Shown here: positions 9,383-55,040 of the stretch, piece by piece
Layout: the number at the start of each line of letters is the position of its first letter
Numbering within the stretch: position 1 is the first letter of the stretch
NCBI GenBank assembly: GCA_023622945.1
Contig: JAMNYG010000187.1
Coordinates: forward strand, 3,940-67,939
DNA from: Bacillota bacterium
GTDB lineage: Bacteria; Bacillota; Clostridia; Acetivibrionales; JAMNYG01
Reading direction: 5' to 3'
Length of the DNA stretch: 64,000 bases
Notes under the pieces: model-generated
Told to the model about the DNA's origin: nothing
What the model saw: the letters and a program-made list of their open reading frames with translations, nothing else
The model's database searches: none
Made by a program: the position numbers and the translations under genes

Positions 9383-10398
9383 AAAAAAGACATGTAGTTA
9401 TCCCTGTATTCGTTCCTCACAAAGGATGTCCCTTTGACTGCATCTACTGCAATCAGAAAAATATAAGCGGACAGCAGGAAGAAATGGATTTATCCGAGAT
9501 GAAGGATATTATTGAAAAATACTTGAGTTCAGTCGATACAAATACACATGTCGAAATAGGATTTTACGGAGGCAGTTTTACCGGAATAGACTTAAACCAG
9601 CAGATAAGCTTCCTGAAACTCGCACATGAATACATCAGGGCAGGAAAGGTTGATGGAATAAGGCTTTCTACCCGACCTGACTATATCGATGAAAAAATAC
9701 TGGATTATCTTTGGGAATATGGCGTAAAAACCATAGAGCTCGGAGTACAGAGCCTTGATGATCAGGTATTGGTGAAAAGCTGCAGGGGCCATACTTCCGA
9801 GGATGTATACAGGTCTTCAAAGCTTATAAAGAATCGGGGTTTTTCCCTCGGTATTCAAACCATGATAGGCCTGCCGGGAGATACAAGACAGAAGGATATG
9901 GAAACTGCCTTAAAGGTAGTGGAACTGCTTCCTGATGTGGTAAGGATCTATCCCACATTGGTGATAAAGGATACCTATCTGGAAAAAATGTATCTCAGCG
10001 GGAAATATAAGCCCCTTGAACTGGATGAAGCCGTCGATATATGCGCCGACCTGCTGGAAATTTATTACTCCAACGGCATAAATGTTATCAGAGTAGGCCT
10101 TCAGCCCACCGAAAACATTAATGAAAATTCCGATGTAGTTGCAGGTCCGTTTCATCCTGCTTTCAGACAGCTTGTCGAGTCAAGGCTTATGCTGAAGAAA
10201 ATCGTGGGAATGTTAAACGGAATGGACATCAAAAAGGGAACCGAACTTGAGATATATACCGGCAGCAGCAATGTATCCAATGTTGCAGGACAAAAAAGAA
10301 AAAATATTGAGTACCTTATCCAAAAATATGGTTTTTCCGAGATAAGAATCAGGAGCAATAAGGATATGGGAAATGAAATAGAAATCAGGCTTAATTAG
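9379..10398 (+). CDS. radical SAM protein (ELP3/coproporphyrinogen-oxidase-like family)
   Basis: N-terminal CPFDCIYCNQ (CxxxCxxC) in a TIM-barrel-like radical-SAM core. It overlaps the rnc stop by 4 nt. Confidence 0.75.
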   Translation: MKKRHVVIPVFVPHKGCPFDCIYCNQKNISGQQEEMDLSEMKDIIEKYLSSVDTNTHVEIGFYGGSFTGIDLNQQISFLKLAHEYIRAGKVDGIRLSTRPDYIDEKILDYLWEYGVKTIELGVQSLDDQVLVKSCRGHTSEDVYRSSKLIKNRGFSLGIQTMIGLPGDTRQKDMETALKVVELLPDVVRIYPTLVIKDTYLEKMYLSGKYKPLELDEAVDICADLLEIYYSNGINVIRVGLQPTENINENSDVVAGPFHPAFRQLVESRLMLKKIVGMLNGMDIKKGTELEIYTGSSNVSNVAGQKRKNIEYLIQKYGFSEIRIRSNKDMGNEIEIRLN

Positions 10399-10403
10399 GC
10401 GGA

Positions 10404-10592
10404 GATGTTCTTTACAAAAGATTCTGTAAAGAGTTTCTGCAAAGAGATTTTACGAAGAGATTTTACGAAGAGACTTTACAAAAAAATTTTGCAAAAAGAT
10501 TTTATAAAAAAGTTTTGCAAAAAGGTTTAAAGAAAAATTCTATAAAGAGATTCTGTAACAGGCTCTATAAAAAGATCCTACAAAAAGATAAA
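10404..10592. repeat. degenerate tandem repeat, 13-nt modal unit x~14 (ATTTTRCAAARAG)
   Basis: ...gattctgtaaagag/tttctgcaaagag/attttacgaagag/attttacgaagag/actttacaaaaaa/attttgcaaaaag/attttataaaaaag/ttttgcaaaaagg/... Two adjacent units are identical. The array fills the spacer between the radical-SAM gene and smc. Confidence 0.85.
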
Positions 10593-10659: not shown

Positions 10660-13600
10660 ATGTACCTGAAAAGCATTGAAATACAGGGGTTCAAATCTTT
10701 TGCAGATAAAATATACCTTGAGTTCAATCCGGGGATAACAGCTGTTGTCGGTCCTAACGGAAGCGGTAAAAGCAATATTGCTGATGCCGTCAGATGGGTT
10801 CTGGGAGAACAAAGTGTTAAAAACCTCAGGGGCGGTAAAATGGAGGATGTAATATTTGCAGGTACTGACCACAGGAAACCTCTTGGCTTTGCTGAGGTTT
10901 CAATAACCATAGATAATTCCGATAATGCACTTCCCGTCAGTTTCAGCGAGGTTACAGTTACAAGGAGGATATTCCGTTCGGGGGAGAGCGAGTATTTTAT
11001 CAATAAATCTCAATGCCGCCTTAAAGACATACATGAGCTCTTCCTTGATACAGGTATCGGCAGGGACGGTTACTCCATAATCGGCCAGGGCAGGGTGGAA
11101 GAGATTTTAAGCTCCAAATCTGAAGAAAGAAGGCATATTTTTGAAGAGGCTTCCGGCATTATGAAATACAAGCTGAGAAAGCAGGAAGCCGAAAAGAAGC
11201 TTGAGCTGACAAAGCAAAACATTTTAAGGATAAGCGATATTATTTCGGAACTGGAAAAACAGCTGGAACCTTTGAGCCGTCAGGCAGAGGATGCGAGGAA
11301 GTATCTTGCTCTCCGGGAAAGGCTGAAAGAACTTGAGGTCAATGTATATATCGAAAACATCTCAAAATACAGGAAAAAAATCCAGGAGTACCAGGATCAG
11401 TACAGTTCTCTCCAGGAGAACATGGAACAGGAAAGAAACAAGCTTGAAAGGATAACACAGGAAAACAAGGAGAAGACGGATCTTCTTAAGAACCTTGAGG
11501 AAAGGCTCGTTGCATCAAGACAGGAATTTTTCGGCCTTGAGCAAAGGCTTGAACAGATTGGATCCCAAATAAAGCTTAATGAAGAAAAAGTAAACAACCT
11601 GACACAAAATATATCAAGGATAGATGCGGAAATACAGGAGACGTGTGCAAAGCTGAACAATCTGGAAAAGGACAAGAGAACAAAGGATGAACGCATCAAA
11701 TACCTCAATGAAAGGTATGAGGATTATTCATCCAGATTAAATGAATACCAGGAACAGTTAAACCAGGTACTCGCATCCATGGACCAGACTTCAAGGCATA
11801 TTGAAGAACTGAAGTCCGGCATTATGGACAAGCTTGACATACTTTCGGATAAAAAGGCACAGATGGGAAATGTAAAGCTTGTCATAGATAATTTGAGGAA
11901 AAGACAAAATCAACTGGCAACCGAAATATACAACCTTGGCATTGAAAAAGACCGGGAAGCCATGAAAAAAGAGGATCTGACAGAATCCATACGCCAGGCG
12001 GGGGAAGTCATACGCCTGACCCAGGAAAGGCTGGATGCCCTGGAAAAGGAAAAGAATGAGCTGGAAGTCATTTCAAAGGATCTGAATGAAAAGCTTAATC
12101 ATGTTAAATCAGAGATTCATGTAAAATCATCAAGGATAAAAATGCTCCAGGATATGGAAAGAAACCTGGAGGGTTATAACAGAAGCGTAAAAATGATCCT
12201 TCAGGCATGCCACAGATTCCCTGAGCTTGCAAAGGGTATACATGGTGCTCTGGCCCAGGTTATTTCGGTGGACAAAAAATACGAAGTTGCCATTGAAATG
12301 TCCCTCGGAAGCGCTTTGCAGAATATAGTAACCACCACCGAAGAAGATGCCAAAAATGCCATTGAGTATCTTAAAAAGAACAAGCTCGGGCGGGCAACTT
12401 TTCTACCCATAAGTTCGGTAAAGGGAAGATACATGGAAAGCCGGCTCCTGGATGAAATAAAGAAACATCCCGGTTTTTGCGGTGTCGCCTCCGACCTTGT
12501 GAAGTATAAAGAGGAGTACAAAGGGATAATTCTGAGCCTGCTTGGCAGGGTGGCTGTTGTTGAAAACCTGGATGCGGGAATAGAGATGGCCAGAAAGTTT
12601 GGATATGGGTTCAGAATAGTAACCCTGGAAGGAGAAATATTAAATACCGGTGGCTCAATATCGGGCGGAAGCACCGAAAACCGGGAGCATGGGATACTGA
12701 GCAGAAACCGTGAGATTTCAGAGCTTAAGGAAGAACTGAAGGAACAGGTTTTACGGCAGGAGTCTCTTGAAAACAGGCTGAATGAAATTTCCGGGGCTCT
12801 TAAAGATATAGAGGCTGAAATAGCAGAAACCCAAAGCTCAAAAAGGGAAACAGAGCTTGAAAAAATCCGCCGGGAAAGCCAGCTTGCCCAGGTGGAAGAC
12901 AATATTAAAAGAATATCATCAAGGGCCGAAATGTTAAAGCAGGAAAGGTTGCAGCTCCAAAGACAGGAAGAAGAAACAGAGACGGAACTTAAAAAGTACA
13001 CGGAAGAGATTTCCACATTGGAAGCTGACATTGAAACAACCAAGCGGGTTGTGTCCGAGTACCAGGAAAAAAATAAAGAAGTCCAAACGGTACGGGATTC
13101 CTTGCACAGAGATATAACAGACTTCAGAATATCGGTAAATTCTATACTTGAAAGTCTAAGCAGCGTAAAAGAATCTCTTGACAGGATAAATTCCGAGATG
13201 GATGCATGCATAAACGCTGTCAATAAAAAACAACAGGAGAAAACCAGGTGTCTTGTGGAAATTCAGTCACTGAAAGAGAAAACCGAGGGACTTAAGAATG
13301 AAATAAAAAGCATAAATACGGCCAAATCAGGCAAGACTTTTGAAATTGACCGCATAACAGAAGAGAAGAAAGTCCTGGAGGAGGAACTTTCAAGTATAGT
13401 TGATATCATTAAGGATATCAATAAAAACATAATGCTTTACCAGGAAGAGAGCAGCAGGATTGAAGTAATGAAGGCAAGGCTTGAAACTGAAATGGAGTCT
13501 GTACAAAACAGGATGTGGGACGAATATGAGCTTACATATACCAATGCATTGCAGCTTAAAAAAGACATAGGAAGCATTACGCAGGCTCAGAAAAAGATCA

Positions 13601-14232
13601 ATGAACTGAGAAATGAAATCAAAAGCCTCGGTCATGTTAATGTTTCAGCCATAGACGAGTATGTAAAAACCAAGGAACGTTATGAGTTTATGAAGCTTCA
13701 GCTTGATGATATGAAGCAGGCTGAAGAAAAGCTTTACAGGGTTATTGCAGAGATTACCTCAACCATGAAGCAGCAGTTTATTAAACAGTTCAGTCTTATC
13801 AATGAAAATTTCAACATGGTTTTCAGGGAGCTTTTTGACGGAGGGCATGCAGAGCTTATATTATCAGATAAGGATAACGTCCTTGAAAGCGGTATTGAAA
13901 TAGAAGTTCAGCCTCCCGGCAAAAAACTCCAGAATATGATGCTGCTTTCAGGCGGTGAAAAGGCACTGACAGCAATAGCTTTGCTGTTTGCCATACTGAG
14001 GCTGAAACCCGTTCCCTTCTGCATACTGGATGAAATAGAAGCAGCCCTGGATGATGCCAACGTCCAGAGATTTGCAAGTTACATTAAAAAGTATTCAAAG
14101 GACACACAGTTTATAATAGTTACCCATAGGAAAGGGACCATGGAGGTGTCGGACGCATTATACGGAGTTACCATGGAGGAACGAGGGATATCAAGAATAG
14201 TTTCCATGAAGCTGAATGAACAGGCAAGCTGA
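10660..14232 (+). CDS. smc: chromosome segregation protein SMC
   Basis: 1190 aa. Walker A GPNGSGKSN, long E/K/L-rich coiled coils, a central hinge, and C-terminal LSGGEKALTAIALLFA plus Walker B ILDEIEAALD. Confidence 0.95.
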   Translation: MYLKSIEIQGFKSFADKIYLEFNPGITAVVGPNGSGKSNIADAVRWVLGEQSVKNLRGGKMEDVIFAGTDHRKPLGFAEVSITIDNSDNALPVSFSEVTVTRRIFRSGESEYFINKSQCRLKDIHELFLDTGIGRDGYSIIGQGRVEEILSSKSEERRHIFEEASGIMKYKLRKQEAEKKLELTKQNILRISDIISELEKQLEPLSRQAEDARKYLALRERLKELEVNVYIENISKYRKKIQEYQDQYSSLQENMEQERNKLERITQENKEKTDLLKNLEERLVASRQEFFGLEQRLEQIGSQIKLNEEKVNNLTQNISRIDAEIQETCAKLNNLEKDKRTKDERIKYLNERYEDYSSRLNEYQEQLNQVLASMDQTSRHIEELKSGIMDKLDILSDKKAQMGNVKLVIDNLRKRQNQLATEIYNLGIEKDREAMKKEDLTESIRQAGEVIRLTQERLDALEKEKNELEVISKDLNEKLNHVKSEIHVKSSRIKMLQDMERNLEGYNRSVKMILQACHRFPELAKGIHGALAQVISVDKKYEVAIEMSLGSALQNIVTTTEEDAKNAIEYLKKNKLGRATFLPISSVKGRYMESRLLDEIKKHPGFCGVASDLVKYKEEYKGIILSLLGRVAVVENLDAGIEMARKFGYGFRIVTLEGEILNTGGSISGGSTENREHGILSRNREISELKEELKEQVLRQESLENRLNEISGALKDIEAEIAETQSSKRETELEKIRRESQLAQVEDNIKRISSRAEMLKQERLQLQRQEEETETELKKYTEEISTLEADIETTKRVVSEYQEKNKEVQTVRDSLHRDITDFRISVNSILESLSSVKESLDRINSEMDACINAVNKKQQEKTRCLVEIQSLKEKTEGLKNEIKSINTAKSGKTFEIDRITEEKKVLEEELSSIVDIIKDINKNIMLYQEESSRIEVMKARLETEMESVQNRMWDEYELTYTNALQLKKDIGSITQAQKKINELRNEIKSLGHVNVSAIDEYVKTKERYEFMKLQLDDMKQAEEKLYRVIAEITSTMKQQFIKQFSLINENFNMVFRELFDGGHAELILSDKDNVLESGIEIEVQPPGKKLQNMMLLSGGEKALTAIALLFAILRLKPVPFCILDEIEAALDDANVQRFASYIKKYSKDTQFIIVTHRKGTMEVSDALYGVTMEERGISRIVSMKLNEQAS

Positions 14233-14264
14233 TGCAAAACAAATATTTTAGATGGAGGTTTCAA

Positions 14265-15651: not shown

Positions 15652-15755
15652 AGGTAAATCCTGATAAATTAGGTGAAGATATATTATGTGAGGATATAGC
15701 AGGTGAAGATATAGCAGGTAAAGATTTGGATAAAGATATGGCAGATTCAGTGATG
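15651..15755. repeat. degenerate tandem repeat, ~15-nt unit (AGGTGAAGATATAGC) x~6
   Basis: aggtaaatcctgataaatt/aggtgaagatatattatgtg/aggatatagc/aggtgaagatatagc/aggtaaagatttgg/ataaagatatggc. The array begins at the ylxM stop codon. Confidence 0.65.
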
Positions 15756-17836: not shown

Positions 17837-17880
17837 TATTGTATTTCTTATTATAGCTATTGTATTTCTTATTATATAGC
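17837..17880. repeat. near-perfect direct duplication, 21-23 nt x2 (TATTGTATTTCTTATTATAGC)
   Basis: tattgtatttcttattatagc / tattgtatttcttattatatagc. Confidence 0.8.
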
Positions 17881-18514: not shown

Positions 18515-19255
18515 ATGCTTAGATTTGACGTTTTAACCCTTTTTCCTGAGCTTTTCAGGGTGGTGATGGGTGAAAGCATAATAGGCAGGGCTCAAAAGAA
18601 AGGGATAATTGAAATAAACCCGGTCAACATACGTGACTTCTCCACCGACAAACACAGAAAAGTGGATGATTATCCTTACGGCGGGGGAAAAGGGATGGTC
18701 ATGATGGCTCAGCCTATATACGACGCTTATCTTCACCTCATCAAGAGTCTGGATTATAAACCAAGGGTAATCTACATGTCACCCCAGGGAAAGGTTCTTA
18801 CTCAGGAAAAAGCAATAGAGCTGGCTTCTTATAATCATATAATCCTTCTTTGCGGTCATTATGAAGGAGTGGATGAAAGGGTACTGGAAGAAATAGTTGA
18901 TGAAGAAATATCCATCGGGGACTATGTTCTTACAGGAGGAGAACTCCCGGCCATGGTCCTCATTGATTGCGTAAGCAGGCTGGTGCCCGGTGTCCTTTCC
19001 GATGAAAACTCCTTTAAGGAAGATTCATTATACGATGGCCTTTTAGAGTATCCCCAGTATACACGACCTTACATTTTTAATGAAAAGAAAGTTCCTGACG
19101 TCTTATTGTCAGGACATCATGCCAAAATAGAAAGATGGAGAAAACTTCAGTCCATAGTAAGGACCTATTATAAACGGCCCGAACTTCTTAAAGACAGAAA
19201 TATTTCACCTGAAGACATAAGGAGTTTTGAAGAAGAGCTCAGGAATATGGAATAA
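18515..19255 (+). CDS. trmD: tRNA (guanine37-N1)-methyltransferase TrmD
   Basis: MLRFDVLTLFPE N-terminus, GHYEGVDERV, LTGGELPAMV. The ATG at 18515 is preferred over the track start at 18479. Confidence 0.95.
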   Translation: MLRFDVLTLFPELFRVVMGESIIGRAQKKGIIEINPVNIRDFSTDKHRKVDDYPYGGGKGMVMMAQPIYDAYLHLIKSLDYKPRVIYMSPQGKVLTQEKAIELASYNHIILLCGHYEGVDERVLEEIVDEEISIGDYVLTGGELPAMVLIDCVSRLVPGVLSDENSFKEDSLYDGLLEYPQYTRPYIFNEKKVPDVLLSGHHAKIERWRKLQSIVRTYYKRPELLKDRNISPEDIRSFEEELRNME

Positions 19256-19360
19256 AATTTATGCAAGAGCATGGAACAGAATTTCTGCAGGGACATGGAA
19301 CCAAATTACTGAAAGGGCATGGAACAGAATCACTGTAAGAGCATGGAAGAAACACTGCTG
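19240..19360. repeat. degenerate tandem repeat, 24-nt unit x5; the first unit is the last 16 nt of trmD (stop codon included) plus 8 nt
   Basis: caggaatatggaataaaatttatg / caagagcatggaacagaatttctg / cagggacatggaaccaaattactg / aaagggcatggaacagaatcactg / taagagcatggaagaaacactgctg. Confidence 0.85.
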
Positions 19361-19389: not shown

Positions 19390-19431
19390 TTAGATAATTA
19401 TATTGTATTTTTAGATAATCATATTGTATTC
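19390..19431. repeat. direct duplication, 21 nt x2 (TTAGATAATYATATTGTATTY)
   Basis: ttagataattatattgtattt / ttagataatcatattgtattc. Confidence 0.8.
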
Positions 19432-20584: not shown

Positions 20585-21307
20585 ATGGCTATCAGGGTCA
20601 CCGTATGGAATGAGTACCGTCATGAAAAGAGAGAGGAGAGAATTGCCAAGATTTATCCTGAAGGAATACATAATGCGATTGCAGGGTACCTGAAGGAAGA
20701 ACCGGATTTTGAAGTAAGGACGGCTACATTGGACCAACCTGAACACGGCCTGACAGACGAAGTACTGGAAAATACGGATGTCCTTATATGGTGGGGACAC
20801 ATGGCTCACAGAGAAGTTAAGGACGAGATTGTTGAAAAGATCTATTACAGGGTTCTCAAAGGAATGGGATTAATAGCTCTTCACTCTGCACACCTTTCAA
20901 AGATATTCGTCAAGCTCATGGGAACCAGCTGTACTCTGAAATGGCGCGAAGCAGGTGAAAATGAAAGATTGTGGGTTGTAGAGCCCAGCCATCCCATCGC
21001 AGAAGGAATAGGAGAGTACATAGATATAGAGCAGGAAGAAATGTACGGAGAAAGATTTGACATTCCTACTCCCGATGAACTTGTATTTATCGGATGGTTT
21101 AAAGGCGGAGAGGTATTCAGAAGCGGTTGCTGTTACAAGAGAGGCTACGGTAAGGTATTTTATTTCCAGCCCGGACATGAATCATATCCTGTATACCACA
21201 ATCCCCAAATAATAAAAGTCATTAAGAATGCTGTAAGATGGGCAAAACCTGTGAAAATGATTTCTGAAATCACCTGTCCCAATGTAAAACCTCTGGAGAA
21301 GATATGA
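20585..21307 (+). CDS. ThuA-like (trehalose-utilisation family) class-I glutamine-amidotransferase-like protein
   Basis: [13 protein letters not shown]...DVLIWWGH...FYFQPGHE pattern typical of ThuA-domain proteins. It is paired with a Gfo/Idh/MocA oxidoreductase as in thuAB-like loci. Assigned from memory of the family, not from a search. Confidence 0.65.
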
Positions 21308-21369
21308 TGCCTCCGGAGAAGACTTAGTGCTTTTGGAAAGGATTTAATGCCTCAAGAGGAGATTTGTTG
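21290..21369. repeat. tandem repeat, 20-nt unit x4; unit 1 is the 3' end of the ThuA-like CDS including its stop
   Basis: cctctggagaagataTGAtg / cctccggagaagactTAGtg / cttttggaaaggattTAAtg / cctcaagaggagattTGTtg. Unit positions 16-18 read TGA, TAG, TAA, TGT. A further diverged unit lies at ~21383-21402. Confidence 0.85.
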
Positions 21370-21476
21370 TTCAGGTTTGATGACTCAGGAAGGATTAAAT
21401 TAACTGTTTGATATCGGGATGAATGAGGAATCATCATTCCGTATCCATATAATAAAAAAACAGGAGGGTGTTCAGT

Positions 21477-22568
21477 ATGTCTAAATGTGAAACCACTGTA
21501 AGGGTCGGTATAATCGGCTGCGGAGGTATAGCAAACGGCAAGCACATGCCCGCCCTTTCCAGACTTAAGAATGTACAGATGGTTGCATTTTGCGATATTG
21601 TACCTGAAAGGGCTGAAAAGGCAGCAAAGGATTACGGAACTGAGGATGCAAAGGTTTATACTGACTACAGGAAGCTTTTGGAAGATAAGACCATTGACGT
21701 GGTACATGTATGTACCCCCAATAAATCCCATGCAGATATAACCGTTGATGCCCTGGAATCCGGCAAGCACGTTATGTGTGAAAAGCCGATGGCAAAGACG
21801 GCAGAAGGTGCCCGCAGGATGGTGGAAGCTGCAAAGCGTACAGGCAAAAAGCTGACCATAGGCTATCAAAACAGGTACAGGGCTGATTCTCAGTATCTCT
21901 ACAAACTCTGCAGAAGGGGAGATCTGGGAGAAATTTACTTTGCAAAAGCCCATGCCATCCGCCGTCGTGCAGTTCCTACCTGGGGAGTTTTCTTAAATGA
22001 AGAAGAACAGGGTGGAGGACCGTTGATAGACATAGGCACCCATGCTCTGGACCTTACCCTCTGGATGATGGACAACTACGAACCCAAGTATGTTGTAGGA
22101 AATGTATATCAGAAGCTCGGAAAACTAAAAGGACAGGCCAATGCATGGGGTCCCTGGGATCCTGAAAAATACACCGTTGAGGATTCGGCATTCGGATTCA
22201 TTACAATGAAAAACGGTGCAACCATCGTACTCGAATCCAGCTGGGCTTTGAATACCTTGCAGGAAGGTGAAGCAATAACCACCCTCTGCGGAACAGAAGG
22301 CGGAGCCGATATGTGGGACGGGCTCAGGATAAATGGAGAAGAATTCGGAAGACTGTATGTCACAAAACCCGATTTCAGAGCCGGCGGCGCAGCATACTTT
22401 GAAGGAAGAGTGGAAAAAGAAGGCGATGTTGAAGCAAGGCTTTGGATAGACAGCATAGTTAACGACACCGAGCTGGTAGTAAAACCCGAACAGACTCTTG
22501 TTGTAACTGAGATACTTGAAGCTATCTACACATCCGCAAAAACCGGAAAGCCGGTATATTTTGAATAA
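21477..22568 (+). CDS. Gfo/Idh/MocA-family NAD(P)-dependent oxidoreductase
   Basis: Rossmann N-terminus VGIIGCGGIANGKH, and EKPMA in the conserved position. Confidence 0.85.
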   Translation: MSKCETTVRVGIIGCGGIANGKHMPALSRLKNVQMVAFCDIVPERAEKAAKDYGTEDAKVYTDYRKLLEDKTIDVVHVCTPNKSHADITVDALESGKHVMCEKPMAKTAEGARRMVEAAKRTGKKLTIGYQNRYRADSQYLYKLCRRGDLGEIYFAKAHAIRRRAVPTWGVFLNEEEQGGGPLIDIGTHALDLTLWMMDNYEPKYVVGNVYQKLGKLKGQANAWGPWDPEKYTVEDSAFGFITMKNGATIVLESSWALNTLQEGEAITTLCGTEGGADMWDGLRINGEEFGRLYVTKPDFRAGGAAYFEGRVEKEGDVEARLWIDSIVNDTELVVKPEQTLVVTEILEAIYTSAKTGKPVYFE

Positions 22569-22644: not shown

Positions 22645-22820
22645 TTATAAAATATGCTTTATGACAAAGATGCCTGATAAATATGAAATATACTTCATAA
22701 TAAAAATACCTGATAACAACAAAAATATGTTTTATGGATAAAAATGCTTGGTAAAAAATAAAAATGTAGTTCATGGACAAAAAAACCTGATAAAACTATA
22801 AAAAATATCTGATGACATGA
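22645..22820. repeat. degenerate tandem repeat, ~38-nt unit x~4.5 (AAAAATATGYTTTATGRNNAAAAATRCCTGATAA)
   Basis: aaaatatgctttatgacaaagatgcctgataaat / atgaaatatacttcataataaaaatacctgataacaac / aaaaatatgttttatggataaaaatgcttggtaaaaaat / aaaaatgtagttcatggacaaaaaaacctgataaaac / tataaaaaatatctgatgac. Confidence 0.75.
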
Positions 22821-22831
22821 AGGTGTTTGAT

Positions 22832-23578
22832 ATGAGCATATCTATAGGACTTCAATTATATACGGTACGCCAGGATACGGCAAAGGATTTTGAAGGGACT
22901 CTTGAAAAGGTTGCCGAGGTAGGATACAAAGGTGTTGAATTTGCAGGATACGGCGGCCTTTCAGCTTCCAGAATGAAATCTTTGCTGGACAGACTGGGAT
23001 TAAAGCCCTGCGGAAGCCATGTGGGCATTGACGATTTGAAAAATAAACTGGATGAGGTTATAGAATACAACCTTGAAATAGGAAACCAATATATCATTTG
23101 CCCCTGGGCATCCTATGAATCAAAGGAAGATTTCCACGAGATGGCCAGGTTCCTCAACGGGATTGGCGAAAGATGCAGGGCAAAAGGGCTTTACTTTGGC
23201 TATCATAACCATGCTCAGGAATTTGCCTGCTTTGACGGAGTATACGGACTGGATATTTTATACCAGGAAACCGATCCTGAACTGGTAAAGGCGGAAATTG
23301 ACGTTTACTGGGTCAAGTATGCAGGACTGGATCCCCTGGAAGTATTGAAAAAGTATGCAGGGCGCATTCCCCTGATACATTTTAAGGATATGGATGCAGG
23401 CGAGAAAAGGGAAATGACAGAAGTAGGAAATGGAATTATAGATTTTAAAGCCATTGCTGACTTCGGAAAAAAGAATGATGCAAAGTGGTTCATAGTAGAA
23501 CAGGATGTATGCAGGCGTCCTGCCCTTGAAAGCATCAAAATAAGCTATGACAATCTGATGAAGATGAACATTCTGTAA
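22832..23578 (+). CDS. sugar phosphate isomerase/epimerase (xylose-isomerase-like TIM barrel)
   Basis: Typical AP-endonuclease-2/xylose-isomerase-like TIM features (GYKGVEFAG, HNH, EQD near the C-terminus). The ATG at 22832 after GAAGGTG is preferred over 22817. Confidence 0.8.
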   Translation: MSISIGLQLYTVRQDTAKDFEGTLEKVAEVGYKGVEFAGYGGLSASRMKSLLDRLGLKPCGSHVGIDDLKNKLDEVIEYNLEIGNQYIICPWASYESKEDFHEMARFLNGIGERCRAKGLYFGYHNHAQEFACFDGVYGLDILYQETDPELVKAEIDVYWVKYAGLDPLEVLKKYAGRIPLIHFKDMDAGEKREMTEVGNGIIDFKAIADFGKKNDAKWFIVEQDVCRRPALESIKISYDNLMKMNIL

Positions 23579-27070: not shown

Positions 27071-27115
27071 AGTAAGGAATATTATTTCCTTGCTTTATTT
27101 ATATATACGATTTCA

Positions 27116-27236
27116 GGCTAAATTTATACAAGGAGCTCGGCCTAAATTTATACAAGGAGTTCAGACCAAATTAAATCTAATGAGTTCAGATAAAATTTGT
27201 ACAGGGAATTCAGAATAAAACATCTCAAGGAGTGCA
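27116..27236. repeat. degenerate tandem repeat, ~24-25-nt unit x5 ending in the pyrB RBS
   Basis: ggctaaatttatacaaggagctc / ggcctaaatttatacaaggagttca / gaccaaattaaatctaatgagttca / gataaaatttgtacagggaattca / gaataaaacatctcaaggagtgca. The last unit carries the functional AAGGAG RBS of pyrB, and units 1-2 carry intact AAGGAG copies. Confidence 0.8.
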
Positions 27237-37590: not shown

Positions 37591-37688
37591 GCAGCTTAAT
37601 ACTGACAATTCATGTTGACAGCATGATGTTGATAATATGATTTTGATAGCCTAATATTGACAGCTTAATATTGATAACCTAATATTAA
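37591..37688. repeat. degenerate tandem repeat, ~14-16 nt unit (GAYARCYTAATATT) x~6
   Basis: gcagcttaatactgacaa.../gttgacagcatgat/gttgataatatgatttt/gatagcctaatatt/gacagcttaatatt/gataacctaatatt. Confidence 0.7.
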
Positions 37689-53717: not shown

Positions 53718-54889
53718 AGAAAATTATACTGGTAAGATACGGAGAGATAATGTTAAAAGGTCTGAACAGATCCCATTTTGAAAACAAGCTTGTAAGCAAC
53801 ATTAAAAAAGCCATACAGCAATACGGAAATGCAGATGTAATCAGGTCCCAGGGAAGGATATATGTAGAACCCCTTTCCGATGACTATGACTTTGATGCAG
53901 CCTTAAGCAGATTGACAAAGGTTTTCGGCATTGTATCCGTAAGCCCTGTATTGAAAATAGAATCAGATCTTGAAGAAATATTGAATACATCTCTTGCCGT
54001 TGCAAAGGATGTTGTTGAAAATAAAGGCTTTAGAACCTTTAAGGTTGAAACAAAAAGAGGGAACAAGAACTTTCCCATGCAATCACCTGAACTCAGCAGG
54101 AAAGCCGGAGCAAGAATTCTTTCCAATATACCCCGGCTTTCGGTTGATGTCCACAATCCGGATTTTATATTATATATAGAAGTCAGGGAATCATCCTATG
54201 TATATTGGGAAATCATACCCGGCTACGGGGGTATGCCGGTAGGTACCAACGGAAAAGCTGTCCTTCTTTTGTCAGGGGGAATTGACAGTCCCGTAGCAGG
54301 ATGGATGGTGTCAAAAAGGGGTGTGGAGATAGACGCCGTACATTTTTACAGCTACCCTTATACCAGTGAACGGGCAAAAGAAAAGGTTATTGACCTGGCA
54401 AAAATTCTGGCACAGTATTGCATGCACATAAATCTTCACATAGTTCCCTTTACCGAAATTCAACTGGAGATCAACGACAAGTGTCCTCAGGACCAGGGGA
54501 CTATACTCATGAGAAGGGCGATGATGAAAATCTCTGAAAGAATTGCCAAATCTACGGGAGCACAGGCATTGATCACGGGGGAAAGCATCGGCCAGGTTGC
54601 CAGCCAGACCATGGAAAGCCTTGTTGTGACCAATGCTGCAGTAAGCATGCCTGTATTTCGGCCCCTGATAGGTATGGATAAAAATGAGGTAGTTGAAATT
54701 GCAAGAAAGATAGATACTTACGAGACCTCAATACTTCCATACGAGGACTGCTGTACGGTATTTGTGGCAAAACATCCTACAACAAAGCCTCAGCTTAATA
54801 AGATACTGCTTTCTGAGCAAAGGCTTGATCTGGACCAGCTCATTGAAAAAGCCATTGCCAATACGGAGGTATTAAGTATATCCGGATGA
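53714..54889 (+). CDS. thiI: tRNA 4-thiouridine synthase / thiamine biosynthesis protein ThiI
   Basis: N-terminal ferredoxin-like plus THUMP region and the PP-loop LLSGGIDSPVA. 391 aa, with no rhodanese domain. Confidence 0.9.
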   Translation: MKKIILVRYGEIMLKGLNRSHFENKLVSNIKKAIQQYGNADVIRSQGRIYVEPLSDDYDFDAALSRLTKVFGIVSVSPVLKIESDLEEILNTSLAVAKDVVENKGFRTFKVETKRGNKNFPMQSPELSRKAGARILSNIPRLSVDVHNPDFILYIEVRESSYVYWEIIPGYGGMPVGTNGKAVLLLSGGIDSPVAGWMVSKRGVEIDAVHFYSYPYTSERAKEKVIDLAKILAQYCMHINLHIVPFTEIQLEINDKCPQDQGTILMRRAMMKISERIAKSTGAQALITGESIGQVASQTMESLVVTNAAVSMPVFRPLIGMDKNEVVEIARKIDTYETSILPYEDCCTVFVAKHPTTKPQLNKILLSEQRLDLDQLIEKAIANTEVLSISG

Positions 54890-55040
54890 CCTTGCATTTT
54901 GACAATAACATGGTAATTTGACAATACCTTGAGGTATTAAACATATCCGTATGACCTTGTATTCTGATGATAACGCAGTAGCTTGATGATACCAAAGTAA
55001 TTTGATAATAAAATAGTTAATTTTATAATAACATATTGGA
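54866..55040. repeat. 65-nt direct duplication whose first copy contains the last 8 codons and stop of thiI, with nested ~22-nt sub-repeats (TTTGAYRATAMC)
   Basis: Copy A 54866-54930: gaggtattaagtatatccggatgaccttgcattttgacaataacatggtaatttgacaatacctt. Copy B 54931-54995: gaggtattaaacatatccgtatgaccttgtattctgatgataacgcagtagcttgatgataccaaa. The tail reads gtaatttgataataaaatagttaattttataataac. Confidence 0.85.

Follow-up and report, generated by a model that had tools for sequence, protein, structure and literature searches.

A stop-codon array behind a ThuA-like gene is probably a decaying tandem duplication of the gene's own terminus

A 64,000-nucleotide (nt) stretch of contig JAMNYG010000187.1 from a Bacillota bacterium, referred to here as the window, carries a ThuA-like gene whose 3' end is followed by a 20-nt tandem array, with a different stop codon at the same position of each of the first three units. 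We estimate a probability of about 0.8 that this array is a lineage-specific, decaying and near-neutral tandem duplication of the ThuA gene terminus, of the type generated by slippage. Its units are copies of the gene end, they occur in this lineage alone, and they have changed in a neutral pattern; slippage is the probable mechanism of the duplication, and the copies probably serve no function. The gene in question (20585–21307, 240 amino acids, start ATG at 20585, stop TGA at 21305–21307) is a sugar-metabolism gene, and its product matches Pfam PF06283 (ThuA, E = 2.7e-36), with homologs aligning over residues 1–240. The ThuA-like gene, the array units, the oxidoreductase gene behind them and the three small open reading frames (ORFs) in the array lie on the forward strand.

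The array consists of four units at 21290–21369 that begin at 21290, 21310, 21330 and 21350, reading CCTCTGGAGAAGATATGATG / CCTCCGGAGAAGACTTAGTG / CTTTTGGAAAGGATTTAATG / CCTCAAGAGGAGATTTGTTG. Unit 1 (21290–21309) contains the last 18 nt of the gene, namely the codons for P-L-E-K-I and the stop TGA, followed by the two bases TG. At the corresponding unit positions 16–18, unit 2 (21310–21329) reads TAG (21325–21327), unit 3 (21330–21349) TAA (21345–21347) and unit 4 (21350–21369) TGT (21365–21367), confirming the succession of triplets that the initial annotation had described. Units 2, 3 and 4 match unit 1 at 15, 14 and 15 of 20 positions (70–75%), and match one another at 11–14 of 20. The array was not listed by Tandem Repeats Finder, even with a minimum score of 30, after which we applied a lag autocorrelation. 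This yielded 39 self-matches out of 60 at lag 20, a level reached at only eight loci in the 64-kb window at lags of 7–65, every one of which is a visible tandem array; the 20-nt periodicity is therefore real. A separate repeat search returned a family (D1) of three copies spaced 20 nt apart.

Behind the fourth unit the array degenerates into a tail (21370–21394) made up of what looks like a shortened unit, TTCAGGTTTGATG, and then ACTCAGGAAGGA, both out of the 20-nt register; a further repeat family (D4) matches AAGGATTTAAT to AAGGATTAAAT. We rejected 21370–21402 as a clean fifth unit, given only 4–5 of 20 in-register matches to unit 1. An independent metagenome assembly (L081) carries the array with a single difference, at 21385, so the array is not an assembly artefact; no copy-number variation was seen in L081, the single other assembly covering it. 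The unit was found nowhere else in the window, and a search permitting up to three mismatches recovered only 21290 and 21310.

To identify the source of the copies, we compared the gene end with 119 ThuA homologs whose alignments extend to the last residue. The C-terminus P-L-E-x-[ILV] is present in 115 of these 119, so that PLEKI, the peptide of unit 1, represents the ancestral, family-wide ThuA C-terminus. The gene end thus came first and served as template for the array, and orthologs carry the terminus once only, which makes the source of this tandem array identifiable as an ancestral single-copy sequence. No copy of the gene's own terminus was found within the next 150 nt at any of 153 other ThuA loci. 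Both counts support the proposal in the initial annotation that duplication of the gene terminus generated the array.

The array is absent from the relatives of this lineage. Scans of genome and metagenome contigs for ThuA returned nothing closer than 78% identity and no locus with a repeat, and an exact-protein look-up found only contigs of the same strain; a word-indexed protein search then provided relatives with ThuA identities of 91% (L165), 82% (L166), 81% (L167) and 80% (L168–L170, Pseudoclostridium thermosuccinogenes). In all of them ThuA is followed by the same oxidoreductase gene, and the spacer between the two genes, 169 nt in the window, measures 92 nt in L165, 16 nt in L166 and 63–65 nt in L167–L170. 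No repeat is present in the spacer of L165 or of any more distant ortholog, a result that the initial annotation had named beforehand as evidence against its interpretation of the array. The spacer of L165 is 77 nt shorter than that of the window and is homologous to it (blastn) from window position 21395 up to the oxidoreductase gene; between the stop codon and this homologous part, L165 has 13–28 unrelated bases and the window about 87 nt of array. An alignment with MAFFT paired the L165 gene end with window units 4–5, a placement that is not meaningful in itself, although it does reflect that the units are homologous to the gene terminus.

The comparison with relatives also bears on the stop codons, which the initial annotation had suggested to be maintained while their flanks drift. 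TAA ends the ThuA gene in L165, L167–L170, L083 and L001, with a preceding codon that is mostly ATT or a close variant, and since the examined outgroups all end in this manner, the ancestral unit can be reconstructed as approximately CCTCTGGAGAAGATTTAATG, comprising the five final sense codons, TAA and the two bases behind it. Relative to this sequence, units 1–4 carry 2, 3, 4 and 5 substitutions, for a total of 14, comprising 11 transitions and 3 transversions. Unit 3 retains the ancestral stop state, while the real stop (TAA>TGA) and the stop of unit 2 (TAA>TAG) each differ from it by a single A>G transition; at the second and third positions of TAA only two transitions are possible, and both result in stop codons. 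Positions 16–18 received 4 of the 14 substitutions and are thus no less changed than their flanks, and the substitutions fall at 11 of the 20 unit positions, leaving nine that never changed, against 9.2 expected by chance.

Further features of the substitutions point in the same direction. Both changes in unit 1, which remains part of the gene, are silent (ATT>ATA and TAA>TGA), and the derived copies contain six amino-acid-changing codons (L>P, I>T, P>L, K>R, L>Q and K>E) in addition to the one stop that was removed. Mean unit divergence is 17.5%, about half of the 34% divergence at fourfold sites between the ThuA genes of the window and L165, and would fit one branch of neutral drift since approximately the time of their split. 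We simulated drift from the outgroup-supported TAA unit, which replaced unit 1 (TGA), the ancestor used in our first simulation. When drift began from TAA, a stop survived in two or more of the three copies in 63–80% of runs; with unit 1 as ancestor the corresponding probability that at least two stops are kept was 0.42–0.52. In an array seeded by the end of trmD, described below, the stop is lost in all four derived copies, and when the three terminus-seeded arrays in the window are pooled, a stop is kept in only 3 of 8 derived copies, so that there is no general rule of stop maintenance. Judged from the sequence, the three aligned stops are inherited copies of the gene's own stop, with no sign of a maintained signal, and the suggestion of maintenance is not borne out.

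These copied stops nevertheless create an arrangement that the initial annotation had overlooked, in which each stop and the following TG form a one-base stop/start overlap (TGAtg, TAGtg and TAAtg, with ATG or GTG as the start), producing a chain of putative mini-ORFs that can be read on from the ...KPLEKI* of ThuA. Mini-ORF 1 (21307–21327; MPPEKT*) starts with the ATG in TGATG, 8 nt behind a GGAG at 21295–21298, and mini-ORF 2 (21327–21347; (M)LLERI*) with the GTG in TAGTG, 8 nt behind a GGAG at 21315–21318. Mini-ORF 3 (21347–21403; MPQEEICCSGLMTQEGLN*) starts with the ATG in TAATG, with GGAAAGG about 8 nt upstream; it shares the reading frame of ThuA, and 73 nt separate its end from the ATG of the oxidoreductase gene. 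A unit length of 20 nt (2 modulo 3), combined with a T-R-R-T-G ending, is enough to make every stop overlap an ATG or GTG and to place a copied GGAG 8 nt upstream of that start: successive 21-nt ORFs that share one base are spaced exactly 20 nt apart, and the GGAG derives from the copied Leu-Glu codons (CTG-GAG). As 20 is not divisible by three, each of the three stops falls in a frame of its own, in agreement with the earlier statement that they are not an in-frame tandem-stop safeguard.

Such a chain could in principle be a ribosome relay under selection, in which minicistrons preceded by Shine-Dalgarno motifs and joined by −1 overlaps keep ribosomes on the mRNA across the spacer, guarding it from nucleases or premature termination and tuning the oxidoreductase, as a home-made analogue of the minicistrons formed by mycobacterial interspersed repetitive units (MIRUs). 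The three consecutive −1 overlaps, each with a Shine-Dalgarno-like motif upstream, would suit this role, as TAATG, TGATG and TAGTG are recognised termination-reinitiation configurations, for which the last 15 nt of the upstream ORF are sufficient for coupling (PMC10666635), and as MIRU ORFs likewise overlap the flanking genes of a polycistron (PMC12548453, PMC3184786). TGATG also joins two genuine genes of the window, smc and the one that follows it, and a hairpin between units 1 and 2 (−12.1 kcal/mol, z = −2.07) would sequester the first GGAG, as in classical coupling. With unit 1 as the ancestor, retention of the chain would also be uncommon under drift (P = 0.025–0.044). However, the chain stops 73 nt short of the oxidoreductase start, and in reporter work gaps of 20–38 nt almost abolish reinitiation (PMC10666635), so the chain cannot deliver ribosomes to that gene, which has a strong Shine-Dalgarno sequence of its own, AGGAGG.

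Moreover, neither the 91% relative nor any other ortholog has the array, the mini-ORFs are absent from all relatives, and their peptides differ between units through non-synonymous changes and are not conserved. With the outgroup-inferred ancestor, units 2 and 3 keep a stop, an overlapping start and an open interior in 13–22% of simulated runs, a shuffled window contains on average about 1.3 chains of three −1 overlaps, and the other arrays in the window are built of unrelated units that lack such an architecture. We therefore consider a selected relay very unlikely. Under the favoured reading as a decaying duplication, some ribosomes terminating on ThuA may still reinitiate through the chain, and any effect of this on expression is probably small. 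As a separate observation, the TGATG overlap of smc and the next gene lies at 14230–14234 and indicates that genuine −1 junctions exist in this genome.

The same GGAG motifs might instead be read as a cluster of binding sites, either in RNA, where GGA or Shine-Dalgarno-like motifs would serve titration of a CsrA-type regulator or stabilisation of the transcript by 30S loading, or in DNA, as direct repeats for a transcription factor that governs the downstream gene. Seven GGA motifs occur in about 100 nt, with GGA or GGAG represented in each unit, and for direct repeats between genes, such as the TAACTGA repeats of Beggiatoaceae, binding of post-transcriptional regulators has been suggested (PMC4679880). 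The motif is, however, a direct product of the copied Leu-Glu codons, and the substitutions reveal no conserved core beyond chance. The array is missing in relatives that have the same operon and the same regulator gene, its unit is found nowhere else in the window, the other arrays are unrelated in sequence and have periods of 13, 14, 24, 39 and 65 nt, and no promoter was found in the spacer. Taken together, these observations make a binding function very improbable.

Least probable of all, in our view, is that the array encodes a programmed C-terminal extension of ThuA by readthrough of the TGA, or a safety net against frameshifts that closes all frames within 43 nt. The ThuA frame does remain open as far as a TAA at 21401–21403, so that readthrough would add 32 residues, close to the roughly 30 predicted by the initial annotation, and the three stops do occupy three frames as a consequence of the 20-nt period. 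Against an extension, it is absent in all relatives, the C-termini of homologs stop within a few residues of PLEKI, and no readthrough context or stimulatory structure was found; closure of the three frames, for its part, follows arithmetically once a stop is duplicated with a period that three does not divide.

Several observations weigh against the interpretation of the array as a neutral, lineage-specific duplication of the gene end. Only a single relative closer than 82%, L165, was found, and it is represented by a 2.8-kb contig with a rearranged or chimeric 5' end, so that the choice between gain in the window lineage and loss in its sister depends on more distant outgroups. L165 also has AAGATTTATTG 24 nt behind its gene end, which agrees with the ancestral terminus at 10 of 11 bases, and one older duplicate may thus predate the split of the two lineages. 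The T at unit position 16 and the TG at positions 19–20 are kept in four of four units, and if unit 1 is taken as the ancestor, drift yields all three stop codons with a probability of only 0.003–0.017 and the intact chain with the low probability given above (0.025–0.044). Judged on sequence alone, weak selection may have acted on the array; a unit-1 ancestor is, for its part, contradicted by the outgroups. In the first 440 bases of L165, the end of trmD and its spacer appear in reverse complement and abut the end of the lacI-family gene without any intervening sequence, the result of rearrangement in the L165 lineage or of chimerism in the assembly.

On balance we favour tandem duplication of the gene terminus, and propose the following course of events. 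A unit close to CCTCTGGAGAAGATTTAATG, situated at the gene end and spanning the stop codon, would have been copied by replication slippage or unequal exchange into about four extra copies behind the gene. The duplication would have been tolerated, with the first copy retaining the intact gene and its stop and leaving the protein unchanged. The extra copies would then have gathered mostly transitions under no detectable constraint, with the TGA that is now the real stop and the TAG of unit 2 each arising from TAA by A>G, and with the stop of unit 4 being lost. Arrays at gene ends would be expected on these grounds, because a duplication that spans the stop codon spares the protein and an intragenic one does not.

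The array lies within a cassette flanked by trmD and lspA, in which genes for a LacI-family regulator, ThuA, a Gfo/Idh/MocA-family oxidoreductase and a xylose-isomerase-like TIM-barrel protein follow one another. The oxidoreductase gene (21477–22568; Pfam PF01408, PF22725 and PF02894) is preceded by a Shine-Dalgarno sequence of its own and probably shares a transcript with ThuA. A scan for promoters and terminators found no terminator in the spacer between these two genes and only weak promoter matches (9/12), the fold of the whole spacer as RNA is no better than that of shuffled sequences (z = −0.75), and no Rfam family matched anywhere in the window at gathering thresholds. The ancestral part of the spacer (21395–21476), common to L165, contains a hairpin at 21410–21445 (GAUAUCGGGAUGAAUG...CAUCAUUCCGUAUC) just 5' of the oxidoreductase ribosome-binding site, the AGGAGG at 21462–21467. 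Its stem is identical in L165 and its loop is different, which suggests a constrained RNA or DNA element, with a fold z-score of only about −1.5. Two further reading frames were discarded: a small ORF at 21419–21484 that overlaps the oxidoreductase start, the frame of which is shifted by a 4-nt length difference in L165, and an antisense ORF at 21324–21953, regarded as spurious on account of its position opposite a conserved gene.

The ThuA-end array is not alone in this genome. The window contains eight arrays in its 64 kb, whereas other loci totalling 970 kb, assessed by the same criterion, average 2.0 per 64 kb (Poisson P of about 0.001, against control loci that were not matched), and by that criterion no arrays were found in L165–L167 or L170. 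Within the 2.8 kb common to both, L165 also lacks a 24-nt array at the trmD end, the second copy of a 21-nt repeat (19390–19430) and a 39-nt array (22649–22804). Judging by this comparison, the ThuA-end array is one of several spacer tandem duplications gained here and absent from the closest sampled relative.

Two further arrays begin inside the 3' ends of genes. The trmD-end array (19247–19352; 24 nt, 4.4 copies) starts at 19247, within the final nine bases of trmD (ATGGAATAA, with its stop at 19253–19255), and in place of the TAA of unit 1 its derived copies read CAG, CCA, CAG and GAA; in L165, trmD ends in ...ATGAAATAA and the whole array is missing. The ThiI-end array (54866–54995) comprises two copies of a 65-nt unit that starts at 54866, 21 nt before the TGA (54887–54889), and its second copy keeps the TGA; a protein search that sought a sister lineage at this terminus-seeded array found no ThiI relatives closer than 76%. 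An array of five 24-nt units that fills the pyrR-pyrB spacer (27097–27219) looks as if it was seeded from the 5' end of the downstream gene, as AAGGAG recurs in its units, the last of which runs into the ribosome-binding site of pyrB; Rfam detected no PyrR-binding element in this spacer at the gathering threshold.

Other repeats in the window differ in unit and setting. The spacer before rimM contains a 21-nt sequence in two perfect tandem copies (17837–17877; TATTGTATTTCTTATTATAGC), only one of which is present in a metagenome contig of the same strain (L164), and because its copy number differs in this way among contigs of one strain, duplication or deletion is ongoing. The 21-nt repeat at 19390–19430 (TTAGATAATYATATTGTATTY) has two copies of 95% identity and is single-copy in L165. 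The 39-nt array at 22649–22804 has four copies and is located between the oxidoreductase and TIM-barrel genes; L165 lacks it and has the upstream hairpin, AAGGCTCACC...GGTGGGCCTT. The start of the TIM-barrel gene is more likely the ATG at 22832, with GAAGGTG 6 nt upstream, than 22817. A 13-nt array at 10411–10589 (TTTACAAAGAGAT, about 13.5 copies, with a 39-nt superperiod) is flanked by a radical-SAM gene (stop at 10398) and smc (start at 10660), and a 14-nt array at 37592–37686 (CAGCTTAATATTGA, seven copies) lies 3' of a pyruvate:ferredoxin oxidoreductase gene, where successive units can be read as TTGACA, 17 nt and TAATAT, a promoter-like hexamer spacing. A 15-nt array at 15663–15741, of about five copies, is in frame and coding (DKLGE, DILCE, DIAGE, DIAGK...) at the 3' end of a small gene upstream of ffh. 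Outside the window, a ThuA locus of 73% identity from another metagenome (L084) has a 12-nt array at its positions 1516–1590 (TGAGGGAAATGA, about five copies) upstream of ThuA, with a Shine-Dalgarno-like GAGGG and an overlapping ATG and TGA.

In all, at least four spacer arrays would have been gained within 4 kb since the split from the nearest sampled relative, and one duplication is still polymorphic, which may give the lineage modest interest for the study of mutational processes or for repeat-based typing. The ThuA-end array itself offers a tidy worked example rather than a discovery, of how a tandem duplication that spans a stop codon is tolerated with the protein untouched, and of how copied stops and Shine-Dalgarno-like codons can mimic a designed signal, here three in-register stops and a chain of minicistrons. 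One close relative, together with polarisation by outgroups, was enough to dissolve the apparent design. A bolder conjecture, which we think very unlikely, is that spacer duplications in this uncultured Clostridia lineage are more than debris: copying a gene terminus with a T-R-R-T-G ending at a period of 2 modulo 3 would generate, in one step, a self-propagating chain of minicistrons, with Shine-Dalgarno motifs and stop/start overlaps, that the cell would use to keep ribosomes on long operon spacers. If true, this would be a functional MIRU analogue generated in situ in a Firmicute, and if the chain were shown to be translated and important for expression of the operon, it would represent a new route to MIRU-like translational coupling elements.

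Comparison with known systems helps to place the array. MIRUs (Supply et al. 1997, as cited in PMC12548453 and PMC3184786) are elements of 40–100 bp dispersed at about 40–50 loci, apparently inserted with target repeats and forming a −4 overlap with the downstream start. On that description the array resembles them in having tandem units in a polycistronic operon spacer and co-directional small ORFs that overlap the stops or starts of their neighbours, making coupling possible. It differs in its 20-nt unit, in its confinement to a single locus within the 64-kb window, and in having been made in place from the end of the upstream gene; its overlaps are of the −1 type, and the downstream gene, separated by the 73-nt gap, is not reached, although the upstream junction TGATG does overlap. 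In dispersal within the window, in unit size and in overlap with the downstream gene, the array therefore departs from the MIRU pattern.

Cistron pairs coupled by termination-reinitiation at −1 overlaps (Huber et al. 2019 and 2023; PMC6728339, PMC10666635) have the same pentanucleotide junctions, with a Shine-Dalgarno-like motif within the upstream ORF, and at the sequence level both of these features are found here. The known cases, in contrast, join two real and conserved genes, often encoding subunits of one complex, whereas the mini-ORFs are relics of 6–18 codons without conservation. The TAACTGA repeats of Beggiatoaceae, Cyanobacteria and Bacteroidetes, found at about 170 loci per genome and mostly just 5' of start codons (PMC4679880), are likewise intergenic tandem repeats near gene boundaries with stop triplets in the unit. 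In that system one heptamer is used genome-wide, suggesting a trans-acting reader, while each array in the window has its own unit.

The closest likeness is to spacer arrays of the slipped-strand or variable-number tandem repeat type, with which the array shares head-to-tail short units, presence or absence among close relatives and neutral decay. Unlike these, its unit is the gene's own terminus with the stop codon, and its copies are old and degenerate (70–75% identical to unit 1) rather than forming a perfect and currently variable array. With a fixed head-to-tail period, an ancestral source, presence in one lineage and absence in its relatives, and derived copies free of constraint, the array works as, and qualifies as, an ordinary degenerate tandem duplication.

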